Shown here: piece after piece, positions 2,922-64,000 of the stretch
Position numbering within the stretch: the stretch's first letter is position 1
Layout of the letters: each line of letters begins with the position of its first letter
From: Nitrospirota bacterium
GTDB lineage: Bacteria; Nitrospirota; Thermodesulfovibrionia; Thermodesulfovibrionales; JdFR-86
Direction of reading: 5' to 3'
DNA length: 64,000 nucleotides
NCBI GenBank assembly: GCA_963721805.1
Contig: CAVRJY010000001.1
Coordinates: 1,483,166-1,547,165, forward strand
The notes under the pieces: model-generated
What the model was told of the DNA's origin: nothing
The model's input: the letters and a program-made list of their open reading frames with translations, nothing else
Database searches by the model: none
Program-made: the position numbers and the translations under genes

Positions 2922-3686
2922 ATGAAGGCATATCTTATATCTATGATCGCAATAATTGTTTTATTGAGCTGCAAGGCGGCTGAACAGCCATCTTTCATCG
3001 ACCCCGCCACCGGCATGGAGTTCGTGAAGGTCAGTGGCGGATGTTATCAGATGGGGGACACATTCGGAGACGGCGAGCTTGACGAGCGCCCCGTCCACAA
3101 GGTCTGCGTTGGAGATTTCGATCTCGGCAAGTTCGAGGTGACCCAGAAGCAGTGGCGGGATGTGATGGGAGAAAACCCCTCCGAGTTCAGTCAGTGCGGC
3201 GGGGATTGTCCGGTGGAAAACGTAAGCTGGGACGATGCGCAGGATTTTATAGCCGCGATCAACAGGAAATACGGCGTGCGATACCGGCTCCCGACAGAGG
3301 CCGAATGGGAGTATGCGGCCCGCAGCGGCGGCAGGCGTGACAGGTACTCAGGGACTAGCAAAGAAGCCGCGGTCGAAGACTATGCCTGGGTCGCGAGCAA
3401 TTCCGAAGGCCATACGCATCCGGTGGGGGCCAAGAAACCTAACGGGCTGGGATTATATGACATGAGCGGTAACGTCTGGGAGTGGACCGGGGATTGCTAT
3501 GATGACGGCTACTATCAGCATAGCCCGGTGGATAACCCGGCGGGTCCGCCCACATGCCTCAGACGGGTGTTTCGGGGGGGCTCGTGGTTTCGGTATCCTG
3601 CGGATGTACGCGCGTCTCTGCGCAGCAACTATGCGCCAGATGTCAGACGCAGCAGTTTCGGGCTCCGCATGCTGAGAATGAAGTGA
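2922..3686 (+). CDS. FGE-sulfatase/SUMF1-domain lipoprotein
   Basis: LLSC lipobox; YQMG, P.H.V, EVT, RLPTEAEWEYAAR, NGLGLYDMSGNVWEW, RGGSW; GAGGG upstream of ATG2922. Confidence 0.88.
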   Translation: MKAYLISMIAIIVLLSCKAAEQPSFIDPATGMEFVKVSGGCYQMGDTFGDGELDERPVHKVCVGDFDLGKFEVTQKQWRDVMGENPSEFSQCGGDCPVENVSWDDAQDFIAAINRKYGVRYRLPTEAEWEYAARSGGRRDRYSGTSKEAAVEDYAWVASNSEGHTHPVGAKKPNGLGLYDMSGNVWEWTGDCYDDGYYQHSPVDNPAGPPTCLRRVFRGGSWFRYPADVRASLRSNYAPDVRRSSFGLRMLRMK

Positions 3687-3781
3687 TCCTCTGGGTCACG
3701 GCCACGGTCAGCATCGGGCTCACCGTCTACTCCCTGCTTATATGAAGCCATACAGCCAATAATACGCGCTATAATAATCAC

Positions 3782-4231
3782 ATGAGCATCGTCCTCGTCA
3801 GCGCCTGTCTCGCCGGCTATCCGTGCAGGTATGACCGCACCCACCGCTTAAACGAAAAGGTCCGCGCCATGGTGCGCGAGGGCCTCGCGGTGCCGATATG
3901 CCCCGAGCAGCTGGCCGGGCTCGGCGCCCCCCGGATGAAGATCGAGTTCGACTCGGAGGGCGGCGGCGCGGCCGTGCTGGACGGCCTCGGAGGAGCGCAT
4001 TTCGAGGACGGCACGGACTGCACGGTCGTGCTTATGAGGGCCGCCGATGAGGTGCTGCGCCTGGCTAAGTTATACGGGGCCACCGGGGCCGTGCTTAAGG
4101 ACGGCAGCCCGTCGTGCGGGGTGACATACGTCTATACCGGCGGCAGGCGGGTGCCTGGCCGGGGCACGGCTGCCGAGCGCCTCAGGCGGGAAGGCATAGA
4201 GGTGCGGGGCGTTGATACCCTTCAGGAGTGA
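3782..4231 (+). CDS. DUF523/YbbK (2-thiouracil desulfurase-like) protein
   Basis: VSACLAG.PCRYD, CPE..AGLG.PR and LKDGSPSCG motifs. Confidence 0.88.
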   Translation: MSIVLVSACLAGYPCRYDRTHRLNEKVRAMVREGLAVPICPEQLAGLGAPRMKIEFDSEGGGAAVLDGLGGAHFEDGTDCTVVLMRAADEVLRLAKLYGATGAVLKDGSPSCGVTYVYTGGRRVPGRGTAAERLRREGIEVRGVDTLQE

Positions 4232-4883
4232 CGTCCGCTCGCGTACGTTTCCGTATTTCACAATCGGGATAATCGCGCTAAACGTGGCTGTGTTCGTGTT
4301 TTCGCTATATGCCGGGATCGAGCCGGTGACGATGCTGTTCGGCGCGGTCCCGCTGGCCCTCATGTCCCACGTGAGCCCCCAGCCGATAAGCCCCCTGGCG
4401 ACCGTCTTCACCTCCATGTTCCTGCACGCGGGGTTTCTGCACATCGGGGGCAACATGCTCTATCTGTGGATTTTCGGCGGCAATGTCGAAGACAGGATGG
4501 GCCACATGAGGTTCCTCGCCTTTTACCTCAGCGGCGGGATAGCGGCTGCGTATTCGCACGCGATCTTAAACGCGACCTCCACGATGCCGATGGTAGGCGC
4601 GAGCGGGGCGATATCGGCGGTGCTCGGGGCTTACATTTATCTATATCCCCGCGCCCGCATAGACACGCTGGTATTCCTGGGGTTCTTCTTCCAGATCATA
4701 CGGCTGCCCGCCTTGATAGTTATCGGGGTTTGGTTTATTATACAGGTCATCAGCGGGATGCTCTCTAGCGCGGCTAGTGAAGGCAGCATGGGCGGCGTTG
4801 CCTGGTTCGCCCACATAGGGGGCTTTCTCTACGGCCTGATCACCGTATTTATCTTCGTGCCTGGAAGGAGGCGCTTGGCGTGA
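4212..4883 (+). CDS. Rhomboid family intramembrane serine protease
   Basis: SMFLHAG..HIGGNM, GASGAI and AHIGGF motifs; TTG start. Confidence 0.92.
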   Translation: MIPFRSDVRSRTFPYFTIGIIALNVAVFVFSLYAGIEPVTMLFGAVPLALMSHVSPQPISPLATVFTSMFLHAGFLHIGGNMLYLWIFGGNVEDRMGHMRFLAFYLSGGIAAAYSHAILNATSTMPMVGASGAISAVLGAYIYLYPRARIDTLVFLGFFFQIIRLPALIVIGVWFIIQVISGMLSSAASEGSMGGVAWFAHIGGFLYGLITVFIFVPGRRRLA

Positions 4884-5776
4884 TTATTGTCTGCCCTCGG
4901 TGCCAGACCAAACTCAGGATTCCTGACGAAAAGATTAAGCCCGAGGGCTCGAAGTTCAAGTGCCCGAAGTGCCCGGCCGTGCTGAATATCAGGAGGCCCG
5001 CGGCTCATGCGCCCGCGCCCGAGGCCCTCTCAGAGCCCGTGATCGAGCAAAAGATCCCGGTAGTGGCCCCGCCGGCGGCCGCAGCGCCCGCGCTCGCTCC
5101 GCACACGGTCCTCGTGGCGCACGAAAACGAGACGGCCGCGCGCGATGCCGAGTCCGCGCTTGCTGCGCTGGGGTTCTCTGTCCTCAGGGCGAGCGACGGG
5201 GTGCAGGCGATGATAGCCGCTCTGAAGGGCAGGCCATCGGTCGTGCTCGCGGATCCCGCGCTGCCGAAGATTGGCGGCTTCGACCTGGCCAGGACCATGA
5301 AAGAACGCCCTGAACTCAGGGGCATAAAAGTCGCGATCATCAGTTCGTCCAGGGACTACCGGCGCGCCCGGCGAAACCCGCAGGTCTCGGCCGATATCGA
5401 CGCGTATATCGACGAGGACGAACTGGCGTCCGGGATGGGCGCGATGCTGCGCACTACGCTGTCTGTCGAGATGCCCCCGGCCCCGCCACCGGTACAGCAG
5501 GAAATAACCCCTGCCGCCGAGGAAAGCGACGCGGAGAAACGCGCGAGGCGGCTCGTCCGCACTGTGTTTTCCGACATAGCGCTCTATAACCCGGAGAAGC
5601 TCGTGGACGCCCTCCGCACCAACACCTTCGCGCAACTCTTCGAGGAGGACATCAGGGAGGGCTATAAGCACTACGTAAGCCGAGTGCCCGACGACGTCCG
5701 CAAGCGGAGAGACTACTTCAAGGAAACCATGGACGATTTCATCGCCACGAAGAAACACGCCCTGGGCATCGAGTAA
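4880..5776 (+). CDS. Zinc-ribbon (MJ0042-type) plus atypical receiver-domain protein
   Basis: CPRC..CPKC N-terminus, Pro/Ala linker, REC-like core, C-terminal ARRLVRTVFSDIALYN helical domain. Confidence 0.75.
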   Translation: MIIVCPRCQTKLRIPDEKIKPEGSKFKCPKCPAVLNIRRPAAHAPAPEALSEPVIEQKIPVVAPPAAAAPALAPHTVLVAHENETAARDAESALAALGFSVLRASDGVQAMIAALKGRPSVVLADPALPKIGGFDLARTMKERPELRGIKVAIISSSRDYRRARRNPQVSADIDAYIDEDELASGMGAMLRTTLSVEMPPAPPPVQQEITPAAEESDAEKRARRLVRTVFSDIALYNPEKLVDALRTNTFAQLFEEDIREGYKHYVSRVPDDVRKRRDYFKETMDDFIATKKHALGIE

Positions 5777-5966
5777 CAAGCCACCGCATCCCCCCAGGAA
5801 GTATTTTAAAAAAGGCTGCCTCACCCGACCGTTTTCGGGCTTCCCATGCCTCACCACATAAAGTGAAATTTCCACATGACAACCTGCGCATTTCGGTGTA
5901 CTATCTGGCTAATCGGCAAAGCAAGCCCCTTGAGGGCTGCAAATTAAAGCCTCAAAGGAGATATCT

Positions 5967-6608
5967 ATGATGAAAGCTTTATCGGCACTGGCACTGGTTT
6001 TGATGTTCCTATTCGCGACGGGCTGCGCCTGCATCAGCCATGACTGCAGGGCTGGTATAGACGACGGCAAGGTCGTATGCAAAACCCTTAATGACTGCGG
6101 CGTCTGCAACGCGCCCACGTGCGAAAAGACCGTCTGCCCGGACTGCCCGACTTGTCCGCCTCCGCCTGCTTGTCCTGTTCAGGCCGCATGCCCGCCCCCG
6201 CCTCCTGTGTCGCACGAACCCTTAGCCACATGCGCGGACATCCCGGACATGAACATATACTTCGATACCAACAAGTACGATCTCGTGACAACGGGCGACG
6301 CGAAGCCGAACGAGAACACGGCCACCCTCGACAAGATCGTCGATAGCCTCAAAAATCCGGACGACGAGATGCTCGGCGTATTTATCGCGAGCCGTTGCGA
6401 CGAACGCGGCTCGATCGAGCTCAACCACAAGCTCGGCGAGAACCGCGCCATGAGCGTCAGAAAATACCTCATGGACAAAGGCATCTCCGAAAACAGGATC
6501 AAGATCATCAACAGCGGCAAGGAAAGCCCTCTCTGCCCGGAGAAGACCAGGGAGTGCTACCAGATAAACAGAAGCGCGGCTATATACTGGTTTAAACTGC
6601 ACAATTAA
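5967..6608 (+). CDS. OmpA/Pal-family lipoprotein with Cys/Pro-rich N-terminus
   Basis: ATGC lipobox; IYFD, CDERGS..LN..LGENRA..VRKYL OmpA C-domain. Confidence 0.85.
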   Translation: MMKALSALALVLMFLFATGCACISHDCRAGIDDGKVVCKTLNDCGVCNAPTCEKTVCPDCPTCPPPPACPVQAACPPPPPVSHEPLATCADIPDMNIYFDTNKYDLVTTGDAKPNENTATLDKIVDSLKNPDDEMLGVFIASRCDERGSIELNHKLGENRAMSVRKYLMDKGISENRIKIINSGKESPLCPEKTRECYQINRSAAIYWFKLHN

Positions 6609-6620
6609 TCAAAGCCGACG

Positions 6621-6659
6621 GGGGCTCCCGGCGTACTCGCCGGGGGCCTCTTTTTTTTT
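6621..6659 (+). terminator. Rho-independent terminator
   Basis: GGGGCTCCCGGCG-TACT-CGCCGGGGGCCTC followed by T9. Confidence 0.9.
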
Positions 6660-6798
6660 GCGGTCCCACGGGTTGCACGTTCACTCTATCCGGATGATTT
6701 TCCGCGGGACTTTCTCAGCGTTTGGGTGTAATATCTTCTCTATCGGCACGGCACGCCCATGGGGGCGGAAAATAAATATTCAAACAGGAGGGATTTAA

Positions 6799-47647: not shown

Positions 47648-47771
47648 AAAGCGATCGAAATCGCGTGATACGTTGTCACGGCTTCGAAGACACGCCCTCG
47701 GAGTACGTCTCAGTACACCGTCGGGCGGTCTTCTCACCGTTCCTAGTCTGACGCTGATTTCGGCTCGCTTT
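47648..47771 (-). repeat. ~120-bp palindromic repeat, copy A
   Basis: AAAGCG...CGCTTT termini; CAGACwAGG, GTGTAC..GTAC and GTATC shared with copies B-D. Confidence 0.8.
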
Positions 47772-58263: not shown

Positions 58264-59010
58264 CTACATGTACATCCCGCCGTTGACGTGCACGACCATA
58301 CCGGTTAAGTATGCGGCCTGCGGCGAGGCCAGAAACACCACGGAATTCGCTACGTCCTCCGGGGTCCCGAACTTGCCAAGCGGTATGGCCTTGAGCATAT
58401 CCTGACGCACGCCCTCAGGGAGGCTGTCCGTCATGGCGGTCTGAATGAAGCCCGGCGCGACGGCGTTGACCGTCACCCCGCGCGATGCGTACTCTTTTGC
58501 GAGCGTCTTCGTAAGCCCGATCATCCCGGCCTTGGCAGCGCTGTAGTTGGCCTGCCCGGGGTTGCCGATGAACGCGACGACGGACGATATGTTGACGATC
58601 CTGCCGGAGCGCTGCCGGACCATCAGCTTTATGGCCTCGCGCGAGCACAGAAACACGCTCTTGAGGTTCGTGTCGATCACCGAGGCCCAGTCCTCGTCCT
58701 TCATGCGCATCAGGAGGCCGTCGCGGGTGATCCCGGCGTTGTTTACCAGGATATCTATGCGGCCCATCCGCTCGGCCGCAGCCTTAAACCCCTCGGCCAC
58801 GCTCGCCGGGTCGGACACGTTCATCTTAAGCGGCATGGTCCTGACGCCGAAGTGCGCCATCTCGGCGGCCGCCTTCCGGGTGCCCTCCTCGGTGGTGCCG
58901 ACTACGACCACGTCCGCGCCAGCGGACGCGAGCCCGTGCGCTATGGCGCGGCCTATCCCCCTCGTGGCGCCCGTTACGAGCGCAACCTGTCCGTTAAGGT
59001 CGATCTTCAT
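58264..59010 (-). CDS. fabG: 3-oxoacyl-ACP reductase
   Basis: TGATRGIG, NNAGITRD and YSAAK motifs. Confidence 0.95.
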   Translation of the reverse strand: MKIDLNGQVALVTGATRGIGRAIAHGLASAGADVVVVGTTEEGTRKAAAEMAHFGVRTMPLKMNVSDPASVAEGFKAAAERMGRIDILVNNAGITRDGLLMRMKDEDWASVIDTNLKSVFLCSREAIKLMVRQRSGRIVNISSVVAFIGNPGQANYSAAKAGMIGLTKTLAKEYASRGVTVNAVAPGFIQTAMTDSLPEGVRQDMLKAIPLGKFGTPEDVANSVVFLASPQAAYLTGMVVHVNGGMYM

Positions 59011-59082
59011 AGATTATTGCCTCAAAAATCACGCTCATTGTATCAGAAAACTCAGGGGCTTTTCCACTTACTAACCACAATA

Positions 59083-61747
<2,665 letters not shown>

Positions 61748-61838
61748 TTTCACGCATATCATATCATGCCCAGCCTGATTCAAGAATCCCCCCACGATGC
61801 CGATAAGAGAGTAGAAGGAACGATGGAGGAGGCCAGGG

Positions 61839-62093
61839 ATGGCGATACTTGCGGATAACGAGATACGGTATTCATATATCCAATATGATGATGTCGACTT
61901 TAGCACCACCAAGTCCCTGATCGAGTCGGGCGTGTTTCATATCTTTCTTCTGGCGGGGAAGAAGTGGGACATAGAGGTATCGCAAATCACCGAAGACTTC
62001 AGGGATTATGTCGTATTCCACGAAATACCGTCATACGTCACCGGCAGCATACACAGCGCGAACAGGATTAATAAAAGCGGGTTAGTCGCGTAA
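61839..62093 (+). CDS. Hypothetical 84-aa protein
   Basis: GGAGGAGG RBS; lower GC; no recognisable motif. Confidence 0.5.
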   Translation: MAILADNEIRYSYIQYDDVDFSTTKSLIESGVFHIFLLAGKKWDIEVSQITEDFRDYVVFHEIPSYVTGSIHSANRINKSGLVA

Positions 62094-62181
62094 GGTTGGA
62101 GTTCGAGGCCTGGCGCTAAGCCGCAAGTTTTTTGTAGTTTTATCTGATAAAATATTTAACAGGATGAATAATAACGCGAAC

Positions 62182-62418
62182 ATGACGCTGTCTGACAAAT
62201 GCCCTATGTGCTGCGGGTCGATGACCGCTGGCAAGACCACGTTCACGGTGGAGTTCGGCTTCGGAGTGGTCGTCGTGCGGGATGTCCCGGCAACGGTATG
62301 CGCACAATGCGGCGCGGACTGGATCGACGACGCGGTCACCGCAAGGCTTGAGGCCATCGTCGCGGATGCGGAACAGAAACATCACACGGTCGAGGTGACA
62401 TCACTGTCGGCAGCGTAG
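62182..62418 (+). CDS. YgiT-type zinc finger (MqsA N-domain-like) protein
   Basis: CPMC.G.M..G.T, V.DVPA.VC.QCG motifs. Confidence 0.82.
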   Translation: MTLSDKCPMCCGSMTAGKTTFTVEFGFGVVVVRDVPATVCAQCGADWIDDAVTARLEAIVADAEQKHHTVEVTSLSAA

Positions 62419-62455
62419 GCTACCCCCTAAGGATTCAGGCACTCAAATGCCCACA

Positions 62456-63138
62456 TCACTCCGGGGAACGCACCGCCGGGCCAAGTCGGCTGCCGTCCGG
62501 GCGGCCGCCGTAGAGCCAGAGCTCGACGCCACCGCCATCGCCGCCGAGGGCCCCCGCCGTCGAGTTGTCCCTCAATTGGCCCGACCATACCCAGCTGCCT
62601 TTGATATTGAACGCAGACTCGGTGTTGTATATTCCCTTCAACTCCGCCATCGAAGGAAGCCGCCATCCGCCTCCACCCACACTCAGGTTGCTGGCATAGC
62701 TGGCCGCCTGATCCAGTTCATCGTTTGCCCGTTGGCAGGAACCCACTGAAGCCCGGTTTTGTTGTCTGTGATGATTCCCTCTTTCATGGCATACCTGCCC
62801 ACCAAAGGAGCCTTAAGCATGCTCGTCTGCCCCTCTGGGGCGCTCTGTATCTCTACGATCGAGGATTCCATTTGAGTTTCTCCGAGCAGAGGGTATATCT
62901 TGTATGCAGAACTCGGATACAACCCATTGAACTTGAATGTTCCATCCGAGCCAGTAGTAGTCTCGAACTTATCATATCCCTTCAAAGGCTCCACCTGTTC
63001 TGCGATAACCTTAACCTTAGCCAGAGGCTGCCCATTACCATCTACAAGCTTTCCTTCAATCCCTGACTTCTTACCACCAAAACCGCAGCACAGCACAAAG
63101 ATCAACGAGACAACGAAGACTTTGACCAATACTCTCAT
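62456..63138 (-). CDS. Secreted carboxypeptidase-regulatory-like plus DUF1566/Lcl (C-type-lectin fold) protein, frameshift at ~62713
   Basis: Signal peptide; G.LVDGNGQPL..V.V..TTGSDGTF.F; DNKTGLQW, NW(D)QA..Y, WRLPS..EL, WVWS, AVRS. Confidence 0.78.
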
Positions 63139-63181
63139 TACCCCTCCAGCAATAGGTTATTGAAAAAACTAAATACTGGAT

Positions 63182-63213
63182 ATTGTAGATTGCCCCCCCC
63201 CCCATAGAGTCAA
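63182..63213 (-). promoter_or_regulatory. Sigma70 promoter with G11 tract in the spacer
   Basis: TTGACT-ctat-G11-caatc-TACAAT (20-nt spacer). Confidence 0.7.
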
Positions 63214-63305
63214 GAAGAAAATGATATTGATATGCGGTAGTGGCAAACGCAATCAATGCCGTTTGACCTTGTGGGGCGCGGGGGGCTACGTTATCCTCTT
63301 CCCCG

Positions 63306-63549
63306 AAAGCGCGCCCAAATCGGCTTCAGACAAGGCAGGGCGAGCAGACCGCCCGATGGTGTATCCCCCTGAAAGCGAGCGATATTGCGTCAGACAAGGA
63401 ACGGTGAGGAAAACGACCGTAGGTGTACTGCATGTACATCGAGGGAGGATTTCCGAGCCAGTGACGCAGTATCACGCAATTGCAGCCGCTTTCACATAGA
63501 GGGCAACTTTGTCGACAAAGACGCAGTATCAAGCGATTTGGAGCGCTTT
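63306..63549 (+). repeat. Palindromic repeat copy D (split) with copy C nested at 63372..63492
   Basis: D left arm AAAGCG..CAGACAAGG..GGTGTA; complete copy C; D right arm GAGGGC..GACGCAGTATC..CGCTTT. Confidence 0.8.
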
Positions 63550-63561
63550 AAAGAAGGCTAC

Positions 63562-64000
63562 TTACGCCGCTTCTTCTCTTTGCAGGTCCTTGAGGGTCGG
63601 CAGTTCGGTGAGCGAGTTCAGCCCAAAGTACTCGAGGAATTCTTTGGTCGTGCCATAGAGTATCGGCTTCCCCGGCGCCTCCTTCTTGCCCACGATCTCG
63701 ATCAGTCGCTTATCGAGGAGCGACTTCATCACGCCGTCGGCGTTGACGCCTCGCAGTTCCTCGACCTCGACCTTCGTAAGCGGCTGTTTGTATGCGATGA
63801 TCGCCAGCGTCTCAAGCGATGCGGGTGAGAGCTTCTGTGCCTTCACCACGCCCATAAGCTTTCTGGCCCATTCGGTCATGGCGGGGTTTGCCGTAGAACT
63901 GATAACCGCCCGCGAGCTTGCCAAGCAGCACGCCGCCCTGGCGCTCGGCGTAGTCCTCGACGAGTTCGTCCAGCAGCGCGCCGATCTCCTCGGGCGAGAG
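63562..64000 (-). CDS. scpB: Segregation and condensation protein B, 5'-partial, frameshift at ~63891
   Basis: LAGGYQF, then LS.ASLETLAIIAYKQP, PGKPILYGTT..FL.YFGL. Confidence 0.92.
   Translation of the reverse strand, partial: SRPRRSARCWTNSSRTTPSARAACCLASSRAVISSTANPAMTEWARKLMGVVKAQKLSPASLETLAIIAYKQPLTKVEVEELRGVNADGVMKSLLDKRLIEIVGKKEAPGKPILYGTTKEFLEYFGLNSLTELPTLKDLQREEAA

Follow-up and report, generated by a model that had tools for sequence, protein, structure and literature searches.

An orphan and probably frozen diversity-generating retroelement variable region at the 3' end of a DUF1566-type gene in a Nitrospirota genome

The 3' end of a gene of the DUF1566/Lcl class, located on the minus strand close to the end of a Nitrospirota contig, is very probably the variable region (VR) of a diversity-generating retroelement (DGR) target, and this VR is probably an orphan, most likely a frozen relic that is no longer diversified. 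Homology with proven DGR targets provides strong evidence that the tail of the gene was written by a DGR and that it belongs to the DUF1566/Lcl_C lectin-fold class of variable regions. Since no cognate template was found for the copy in the window (the whole stretch of 64,000 nucleotides that was analysed), its attribution to a DGR draws on this homology rather than on a template-VR pair of its own. Four observations together make a frozen relic the most likely outcome: no DGR machinery was found in the genome, the gene is interrupted by a frameshift, residues of the otherwise constant scaffold have been lost, and the flank that accompanies proven targets has decayed. The features of the locus are collected in the table.

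Table. Features of the orphan target gene and its surroundings (positions in the window)
Feature	Positions	Strand	Remarks
Whole target gene, read as one	62456-63138	-	Signal peptide, CarboxypepD_reg/transthyretin-like domain, DUF1566/Lcl_C lectin-like domain
Frameshift site	62707-62718	-	N-terminal frame ..QTMNW, C-terminal frame from DQAASY..; family alignment continuous ..MNW.QA..Y
Approximate 5' edge of VR homology, GACAACTCGACGGCG (D N S T A)	62555-62569	-	Matches the D-S-S-S-A template start; placed by homology
Putatively mutagenised VR core	62483-62557	-	NNC codons where family templates have AAC
Constant GC-rich 3' VR end, expected place of the IMH	62459-62482	-	DNA conserved across the family; common to VR and template in proven pairs
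Degraded copy of the conserved 3' flank	62427-62455	-	Stop, TGT GG, then three 8-nt units
Flank units GCATTTGA (intact); GTGCCTGA and ATCCTTAG (degenerate)	62443-62450; 62435-62442 and 62427-62434	-	
Weak 6-bp hairpin GGTAGC-CTAC-GCTGCC	62409-62424	-	At the place of the family's strong GC hairpin
Copy of the abundant repeat bordering the islet	63251-63363	.	blastn of intergenic 63139-63565 gives 461 genome matches

The first-pass annotation had described a single DUF1566/Lcl gene. While the assignment to this class stands, the gene is in fact split by a one-base frameshift, overlooked at the time, into two overlapping minus-strand open reading frames (ORFs), 62683-63138 (151 aa) and 62456-62746 (96 aa). 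The two frames overlap over 62686-62746 and the sequence is one base short of the family reading, such that the first frame ends with ..GLQWVPANGQTMNW and the second starts with DQAASYASNLSVGGGGWRLPS.., at a place that is unbroken in every homologue. The frameshift could be an assembly error. The N-terminal ORF matches PF13620 (CarboxypepD_reg) over residues 27-81 at 29.1 bits (E 1.3e-6), a score below the curated Pfam cut-off of 32.3 bits, and PF13620 is also given for its protein in the precomputed annotation. The C-terminal ORF matches PF07603 (Lcl_C/DUF1566) over profile positions 24-83 of 117 at 19.5 bits (E 1.3e-3), which is likewise below the Pfam cut-off (34.9 bits), and its last 39 residues, the tail in question, fall outside this profile match. 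No other Lcl_C match occurs in the genome. The gene combines a C-type-lectin-like (DUF1566/Lcl_C) domain with a VR at its 3' end, as do DGR targets of category d (CLec2).

A search with the N-terminal ORF returned 59 homologous proteins of 183-255 aa (43-63% identity, E 5.5e-51 to 1e-25), nearly all of which are annotated with both PF13620 and PF07603; a typical family protein has about 230 aa. The closest is P0002, at 63% identity, and the best identity in a metagenome search with the same query was 58%; the DNA of the target gene was not found in 40 related genomes. In the family alignment the body of the protein is well conserved and the stretch from S.AW to LAVRS.K is hypervariable, being rich in N, D, S, Y, G and F. 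The predicted model of one family member (P0005, mean pLDDT 88.4) has as its best PDB match the C-terminal domain of Legionella Lcl, 8q4e (E 5.2e-6, TM 0.59 on target, 26% identity over 110 columns), and its N-terminal half matches transthyretin-like and carboxypeptidase regulatory domains.

Members of this family are proven DGR targets. Candidate templates (TRs) were scored by the number of matches plus the mismatches at which the candidate has an A. By this measure the VR of locus L009 aligns with a TR in locus L062 over 135 nt, with 21 A-to-N changes and 2 other differences. L062 is the RT locus of the same genome and lies outside the ±10-kb flanks of L009; it holds both the template and the RT for L009, organised as a canonical target-Avd-TR-RT-target cassette whose RT displays LPIGNLTSQ and YCDD motifs. 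Similarly, the VR of L029, whose tail is of the same type as that in the window, aligns with the TR of L090 over 103 nt, with 11 A-to-N changes and 1 other difference; this TR adjoins an RT and lies on a different contig from the VR. The gene is complete at 63 of 75 metagenome loci, and cis templates were recovered at L100, L104 and L142/L143 (the latter two being one sequence, represented twice), with an RT on the same contig as the cis template at L104, L142 and L143. No cis TR was seen within ±10 kb at any of 34 genome loci when the last 110 nt were scanned without gaps and with tolerance for adenines; some of these loci hold OmpA-fused or truncated genes for which the wrong tail was scanned, and templates did emerge once RT loci and metagenome contigs were included. 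One candidate TR, L138, was dropped as a plain direct repeat, with 57 matches and zero adenine mismatches. Overall, of the 27 genomes with a family member, 5 have an RT of the DGR type (E <= 1e-40 to the L062 RT); the 27 are mainly MAGs, and in most of them none was detected. At L005 (10001-11888) a family gene is truncated after approximately residue 175 and has a slightly overlapping 453-aa DGR RT gene immediately downstream; this junction is without VR, Avd or TR and looks like a deletion between target and cassette.

The tail of the window gene can be aligned with the family templates codon for codon. These templates encode SSSAW-NFNFNNGNENWNNR(D/N)NSNNNR-(V/G)F(G/A)VRS. Compared with the non-cognate TRs of L071, L142 and L090, the window tail shows 37-43 matches and 21-23 mismatches at template adenines, along with 8-12 non-adenine mismatches and one extra codon; non-cognate pairs among other family members have 5-6 non-adenine mismatches per 60 nt. 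At the protein level, A-G-A-L-G-G-D-(G)-G-G-V-E-L-W-L-Y-G-G-R-P-D-G-S-R is positioned over A-W-N-F-N-F-N-N-G-N-E-N-W-N-N-R-N-N-S-N-N-N-R of the template. Nearly all template AAC codons are NNC or NNT in the window, the A, G, E, W and final R..AVRS are retained, and the constant blocks A.., E.W and AVRS sit where the templates have no adenines. The constant-looking segment that had been singled out in the first-pass annotation, GCGGTGCGTTCC at 62465-62476 (minus strand), encodes AVRS and indeed falls inside the family-conserved VR end. The pattern of NNC/NNT at template AAC/AAT positions is therefore present against the non-cognate family TRs, with five deviating scaffold positions at which W, F, F, R and S of the templates are G, L, G, G and P in the window. 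With family TRs that differ from VRs at adenines, RTs nearby, and a tail that follows the templates codon by codon, the DGR footprint proposed for the 3' end of this DUF1566/Lcl gene is well founded. The proportion of template adenines that are kept is 44-62% in proven pairs and about 18% in the window when measured against a family-type template, most replacements being G. Several scaffold and flank differences of the window are T-to-G or T-to-C changes, those relative to the templates falling on non-adenine positions. Such T-to-G and T-to-C changes are not a product of DGR mutagenesis.

The family also shares DNA beyond the coding sequence. Many family genes have TGTGG after the stop codon, followed by three to four tandem 8-nt units, NNATTTGA. 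An 8-nt spacing separates successive TTTG[AG] motifs in 37 of 53 intervals, and at least two flank units are present in 32 of 69 family flanks. The units occur after all five of the proven targets examined and after the cis target of L062, and the flanks of five templates have 0-1 of them; the flank motif is thus confined to the recipient side. In known DGRs, the IMH and the inverted repeat lie on the recipient side (PMC5758913, as far as described there). The units often precede a GC hairpin whose loop is 4 nt long, approximately 35-45 nt past the stop; for four homologue flanks the folding z is -3.9 to -7.1, and none of 200 shuffles is as good. Units and hairpin are conserved in non-coding DNA within the first 60 nt after the stop (loci L002-L170, for example L100:2804-2870 and L029:2576-2640), and the MAGs that carry this flank are labelled Nitrospira, Desulfobacteraceae, Syntrophus and others. 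In the window, the constant VR end is conserved and the units are partly kept; the 66-nt flank folds at z = -1.48, with 19 of 200 shuffles at least as good, so the hairpin is not above chance. The short downstream hairpin noted previously, GGGCAT-TTGA-GTGCCT, does exist (62437-62452), but it is not the conserved flank element, and a z of -1.48 is not beyond chance.

The target gene resides in a 1.5-kb low-GC islet. In 500-nt bins, GC is 0.50-0.56 over 61501-63500, compared with approximately 0.66 just before and 0.59 after. The islet is bordered by a P-type ATPase gene on one side and by a copy of an abundant repeat on the other, the strongest matches of this repeat covering the 63251-63363 core at 82-95% identity. 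A second, partial repeat copy is found in the window at 47714-47771. The end of the window is the end of contig C1, and the start of contig C6 holds a second version of the locus that is 98.2% identical over 3.4 kb and lacks the islet. The C6 version encodes an intact 942-aa P-type ATPase (C6:450-3278, L171) and the same 84-aa ORF, past which its cargo consists of a 571-aa P-loop protein (3650-5365, minus strand) and a 344-aa transposase-like ORF (5644-6678), followed by a repeat-like spacer, scpB and thrS. In the window, the cargo between the 84-aa ORF and scpB is a zinc-ribbon ORF plus the DUF1566 gene, and the scpB parts of the two versions are only 86% identical (58634-64000 compared with C6:1-8000). 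Both small window ORFs converge on the lectin gene from the plus strand: the ORF at 61839-62093, the 84-aa ORF common to the C6 version, has no family match, and the ORF at 62164-62418 encodes a zinc-ribbon protein with weak matches to the MqsA antitoxin (E 2.6e-3) and YokU (9.7e-3).

The two versions of the locus also bear on how the frameshift is to be read. The P-type ATPase gene of the window (59083-61912, minus strand) is split into four ORFs and differs from the C6 copy by 57 substitutions and three frame-breaking single-base indels (59520, 60233 and 61115). The idea that the whole assembly is frameshift-ridden was rejected, as the rpoB frame is open over 1316 aa and a further 10 P-type ATPase genes are unbroken. 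This leaves two readings of the end of C1, a variant of the locus in decay or a contig end with poor polishing and errors confined to it, and the same doubt extends to the frameshift in the lectin gene. An 11-G run at 63193-63203 (minus strand), about 55-65 nt upstream of the ATG of the target gene, is likely a spot of homopolymer sequencing error and possibly a slippage tract in the promoter region. Contig C7 has a P-type ATPase match whose score and open-frame length are the same as those of C1:799224-799763. A further split ATPase lies on contig C8, and it may be that the small contigs hold variant versions of stretches of the large ones.

Three components of category d (CLec2) DGR systems, a cognate TR, a DGR-type RT and Avd, were not found in this genome assembly, which comprises 2.78 Mb in 9 contigs, is 94% complete and has 11 kb as its smallest contig. 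There is no match to PF00078 (RVT_1) at E <= 0.01 in the genome, the L062 RT as a tblastn query of the genome reaches no better than E 0.43, and a protein search of the genome's own proteins for an RT returns nothing at E <= 1e-20. For Avd, tblastn of the genome with the L062 protein as a single query has a best E of 0.65. An adenine-tolerant scan for a TR across the 9 contigs, on both strands and with four VR lengths, yields A-rich chance matches only; applied to the family, this approach does recover the TRs of L009, L029, L100, L104 and L142/L143. The template that the first-pass annotation suggested looking for by BLASTn at word size 7 did not emerge from the genome, where the query itself is the sole match, nor did the paralogs sharing the 3' end that it also suggested looking for: the tail is unique in the genome. 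Likewise, a template pattern derived from the VR has 0 matches in metagenome contigs and also 0 in viral contigs. An Rfam search of 61500-64000 has no match at E <= 1. A DGR-like RT is found in 0 of 10 genomes of the same family and in 1 of 30 genomes of the same order. The earlier proposal of a remote or orphaned target is consistent with an assembly in which no RT, Avd or TR was found. Two findings had been named in advance as speaking against a DGR, namely the lack of a TR and an RT and a C-terminus that is invariant among homologues. The first is what this genome presents, whereas the C-termini vary across the family.

Is the gene perhaps a live remote target? Absence of the machinery is not proven, given a completeness of 94%, a smallest contig of 11 kb, cassettes that elsewhere lie on contigs of 2.6-3.5 kb, and a locus that exists in two versions. 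An RT, an Avd and a TR that escaped assembly or binning, or that reside on a phage or plasmid, might rewrite the gene in trans, in which case the frameshift would be an assembly error. Remote targeting is real in the family, as the L009-L062 pair within one genome and the L029 VR and its TR on different contigs attest, and remote targets have been described in other systems (PMC5758913, in the parts consulted). Moreover, the DGR cassettes of other MAGs sit on contigs of just the size of which this assembly keeps none, and the gene lies on a variant version of the locus, at a contig end. However, no RT, Avd or TR turned up in the 2.78 Mb, the template pattern is absent from the viral and metagenome contig collections, and none of the same-family genomes has a DGR-like RT. 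In addition, the window has only degraded forms of the flank repeats and hairpin retained by proven targets, and conserved scaffold codons that are free of adenines have changed. We therefore regard ongoing rewriting in trans as the main alternative to a relic, but an unlikely one.

A frozen relic accounts better for these observations, and would have arisen as follows. At an earlier time, and probably in another host, a DGR RT would have copied an AAC-rich template RNA of the type A-W-N-F-N-F-N-N-G-N-E-N-W-N-N-R-N-N-S-N-N-N-R-V-F-G-V-R-S, as homology with the proven pairs suggests. Adenines would have been misread and the cDNA would have replaced the 3' end of the gene, which by analogy with the same pairs could have left NNC codons on a constant scaffold and a GC-rich constant end. 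The gene would then have reached this genome without the retroelement, as cargo of the 1.5-kb low-GC islet beside the repeat; the islet is observed and the transfer is what we infer from it. In its present genome, no template, RT or Avd appears to be at hand for rewriting. The first-pass annotation had proposed that the gene encodes a hypervariable protein, and for the present this is unlikely, since the gene copy is broken by a frameshift.

Frozen variable regions, presumably orphaned, are common in the family. Close pairs of family members were compared across genomes or samples, and 6 of the 9 informative pairs differ as little in the VR core as in the body (identity for VR and body, 0.91 and 0.91 in L021/L024, 0.95 and 0.94 in L002/L004), and it is this equality that indicates freezing. 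In the 3 other pairs, the VR is far more diverged than the body (0.65 vs 0.93 in L118/L123, 0.69 vs 0.89 in L100/L101, 0.77 vs 0.88 in L008/L010). One more close pair, beyond the 9 informative ones, is identical.

A more speculative scenario, to which we give rather little credence, is that the tandem NNATTTGA units, which occur right behind the stop codon of family targets from several phyla, are an undescribed recipient-site signal of one DGR lineage, and that orphan targets travel alone in cargo islets and can be used again by any resident DGR of that lineage, being dormant rather than dead.

It remains to consider the composition of the tail, from which the first-pass annotation had started. 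Its counts are exact: the 96 nt at 62462-62557 (minus strand) hold 6 A, 35 C, 42 G and 13 T, and the 21 codons at 62489-62551 (minus strand), which encode ALGGDGGGVELWLYGGRPDGS, include 18 NNY, 16 NNC and 7 GGC. The gene body is A-rich as had been stated, with 8-19 A per 48 nt compared with 3 and 4 A in the final two 48-nt blocks, and GC is 0.79 in the tail, 0.51 in the gene body and 0.607 genome-wide. Over both strands, 9,181 of 5,548,972 genomic windows of 96 nt (0.17%) have at most 6 A, and 4,146 of 822,264 windows of 21 codons in ORFs of at least 300 codons (0.50%) have at least 16 NNC. The composition of the tail is rare in this genome, not unique, and the weight of the case for a DGR therefore comes from homology with proven variable regions. 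Across 68 family genes, whose host loci have a GC of 0.37-0.64, the last 32 codons contain a median of 15 NNC and the bodies are 17-41% NNC; since the tails are NNC-rich over this range of GC, host GC is no explanation. Within the family, the window tail is nonetheless extreme by comparison: its last 96 nt have 7 A vs a median of 16, a value as low in only 2 of 68 members, its 42 G are the family maximum, and its last 32 codons have 8 GGC, for a family median of 2 and maximum of 6. This heavy GGC excess is not predicted by random mutagenesis of adenines. It could reflect a G-richer template, a strong preference of the RT for A-to-G changes, or GC-biased local change after orphaning. An origin of the GC-rich tail from the abundant repeat, or from any repeat, was ruled out because the tail and the 370 nt downstream are unique in the genome.

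It is very improbable that the tail was never written by a DGR and is instead a fast-evolving, glycine- and GC-rich lectin loop shaped by ordinary mutation, by slippage of GGC-type repeats or by local repair biased towards GC: the surplus of GGC and G, the AT-to-GC changes in the non-coding flank as well as at non-adenine positions of the scaffold, and the thousands of equally adenine-poor windows in the genome would fit such a loop, but the tail is homologous position by position to VRs with proven templates, has NNC where templates have AAC and constant blocks where they have no adenines, and shares its NNC richness with genes from hosts of widely differing GC.

How does the window gene compare with known systems? 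[quoted passage not shown] 2018, PMC5758913, from the parts of the source consulted). At the level of this class, and going by its description in that source as far as consulted, the window gene is alike in having a C-terminal VR on a small secreted or lipoprotein-like DUF1566 protein and a constant scaffold with NNC codons and a terminal V-R-x motif, and the family is alike in including members with an AAC-rich TR, Avd and an RT with LPIGNLTSQ and Y-x-DD motifs. Unlike that class as described there, the window copy is without TR, RT and Avd, is frameshifted, and has a CarboxypepD_reg/transthyretin-like domain as its N-terminal partner. The likeness to the C-terminal domain of Legionella pneumophila Lcl (8q4e) is one of fold alone, seen with the family model, and the C-terminal ORF of the window has a weak Pfam match to Lcl_C.

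The cassette of Bordetella phage BPP-1 is ordered mtd-avd-TR-brt and has an IMH and a downstream GC-rich inverted repeat (PMC5758913, in the parts consulted). In keeping with that account, the window family has a GC-rich constant VR end, a flank restricted to the recipient and a GC hairpin (4-nt loop) in many members. Unlike BPP-1 as portrayed in the same parts of that source, which has an Mtd-type fold, the window family is of the DUF1566 type, and it has three to four tandem NNATTTGA units between the VR end and the hairpin, which the consulted parts of PMC5758913 do not mention; in the window copy itself, both units and hairpin are degraded. DGR targets that are remote, that is, non-adjacent, are known for instance from Treponema denticola (PMC5758913, in the parts consulted). 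The L009 and L029 targets resemble them in being far from, or on another contig than, RT and TR. By that partial account, a remote target of this kind keeps its TR elsewhere in the genome, whereas none was found in the genome of the window.

DGR targets of the DUF1566 class have thus already been described (PMC5758913, as far as consulted), to which the window copy adds one more orphan example and, taken singly, little else. For annotation, an adenine-poor and NNC-rich gene end is no proof of ongoing hypermutation. Within the family of the window gene, frozen binding tips appear to be at least as common as actively diversified ones, and the conserved flank with its 8-nt repeats and hairpin is a candidate for target recognition by this DGR lineage. 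A binding tip written by a DGR can, it seems, outlive its retroelement and, judging from the islet, may move between genomes as a small cargo gene.
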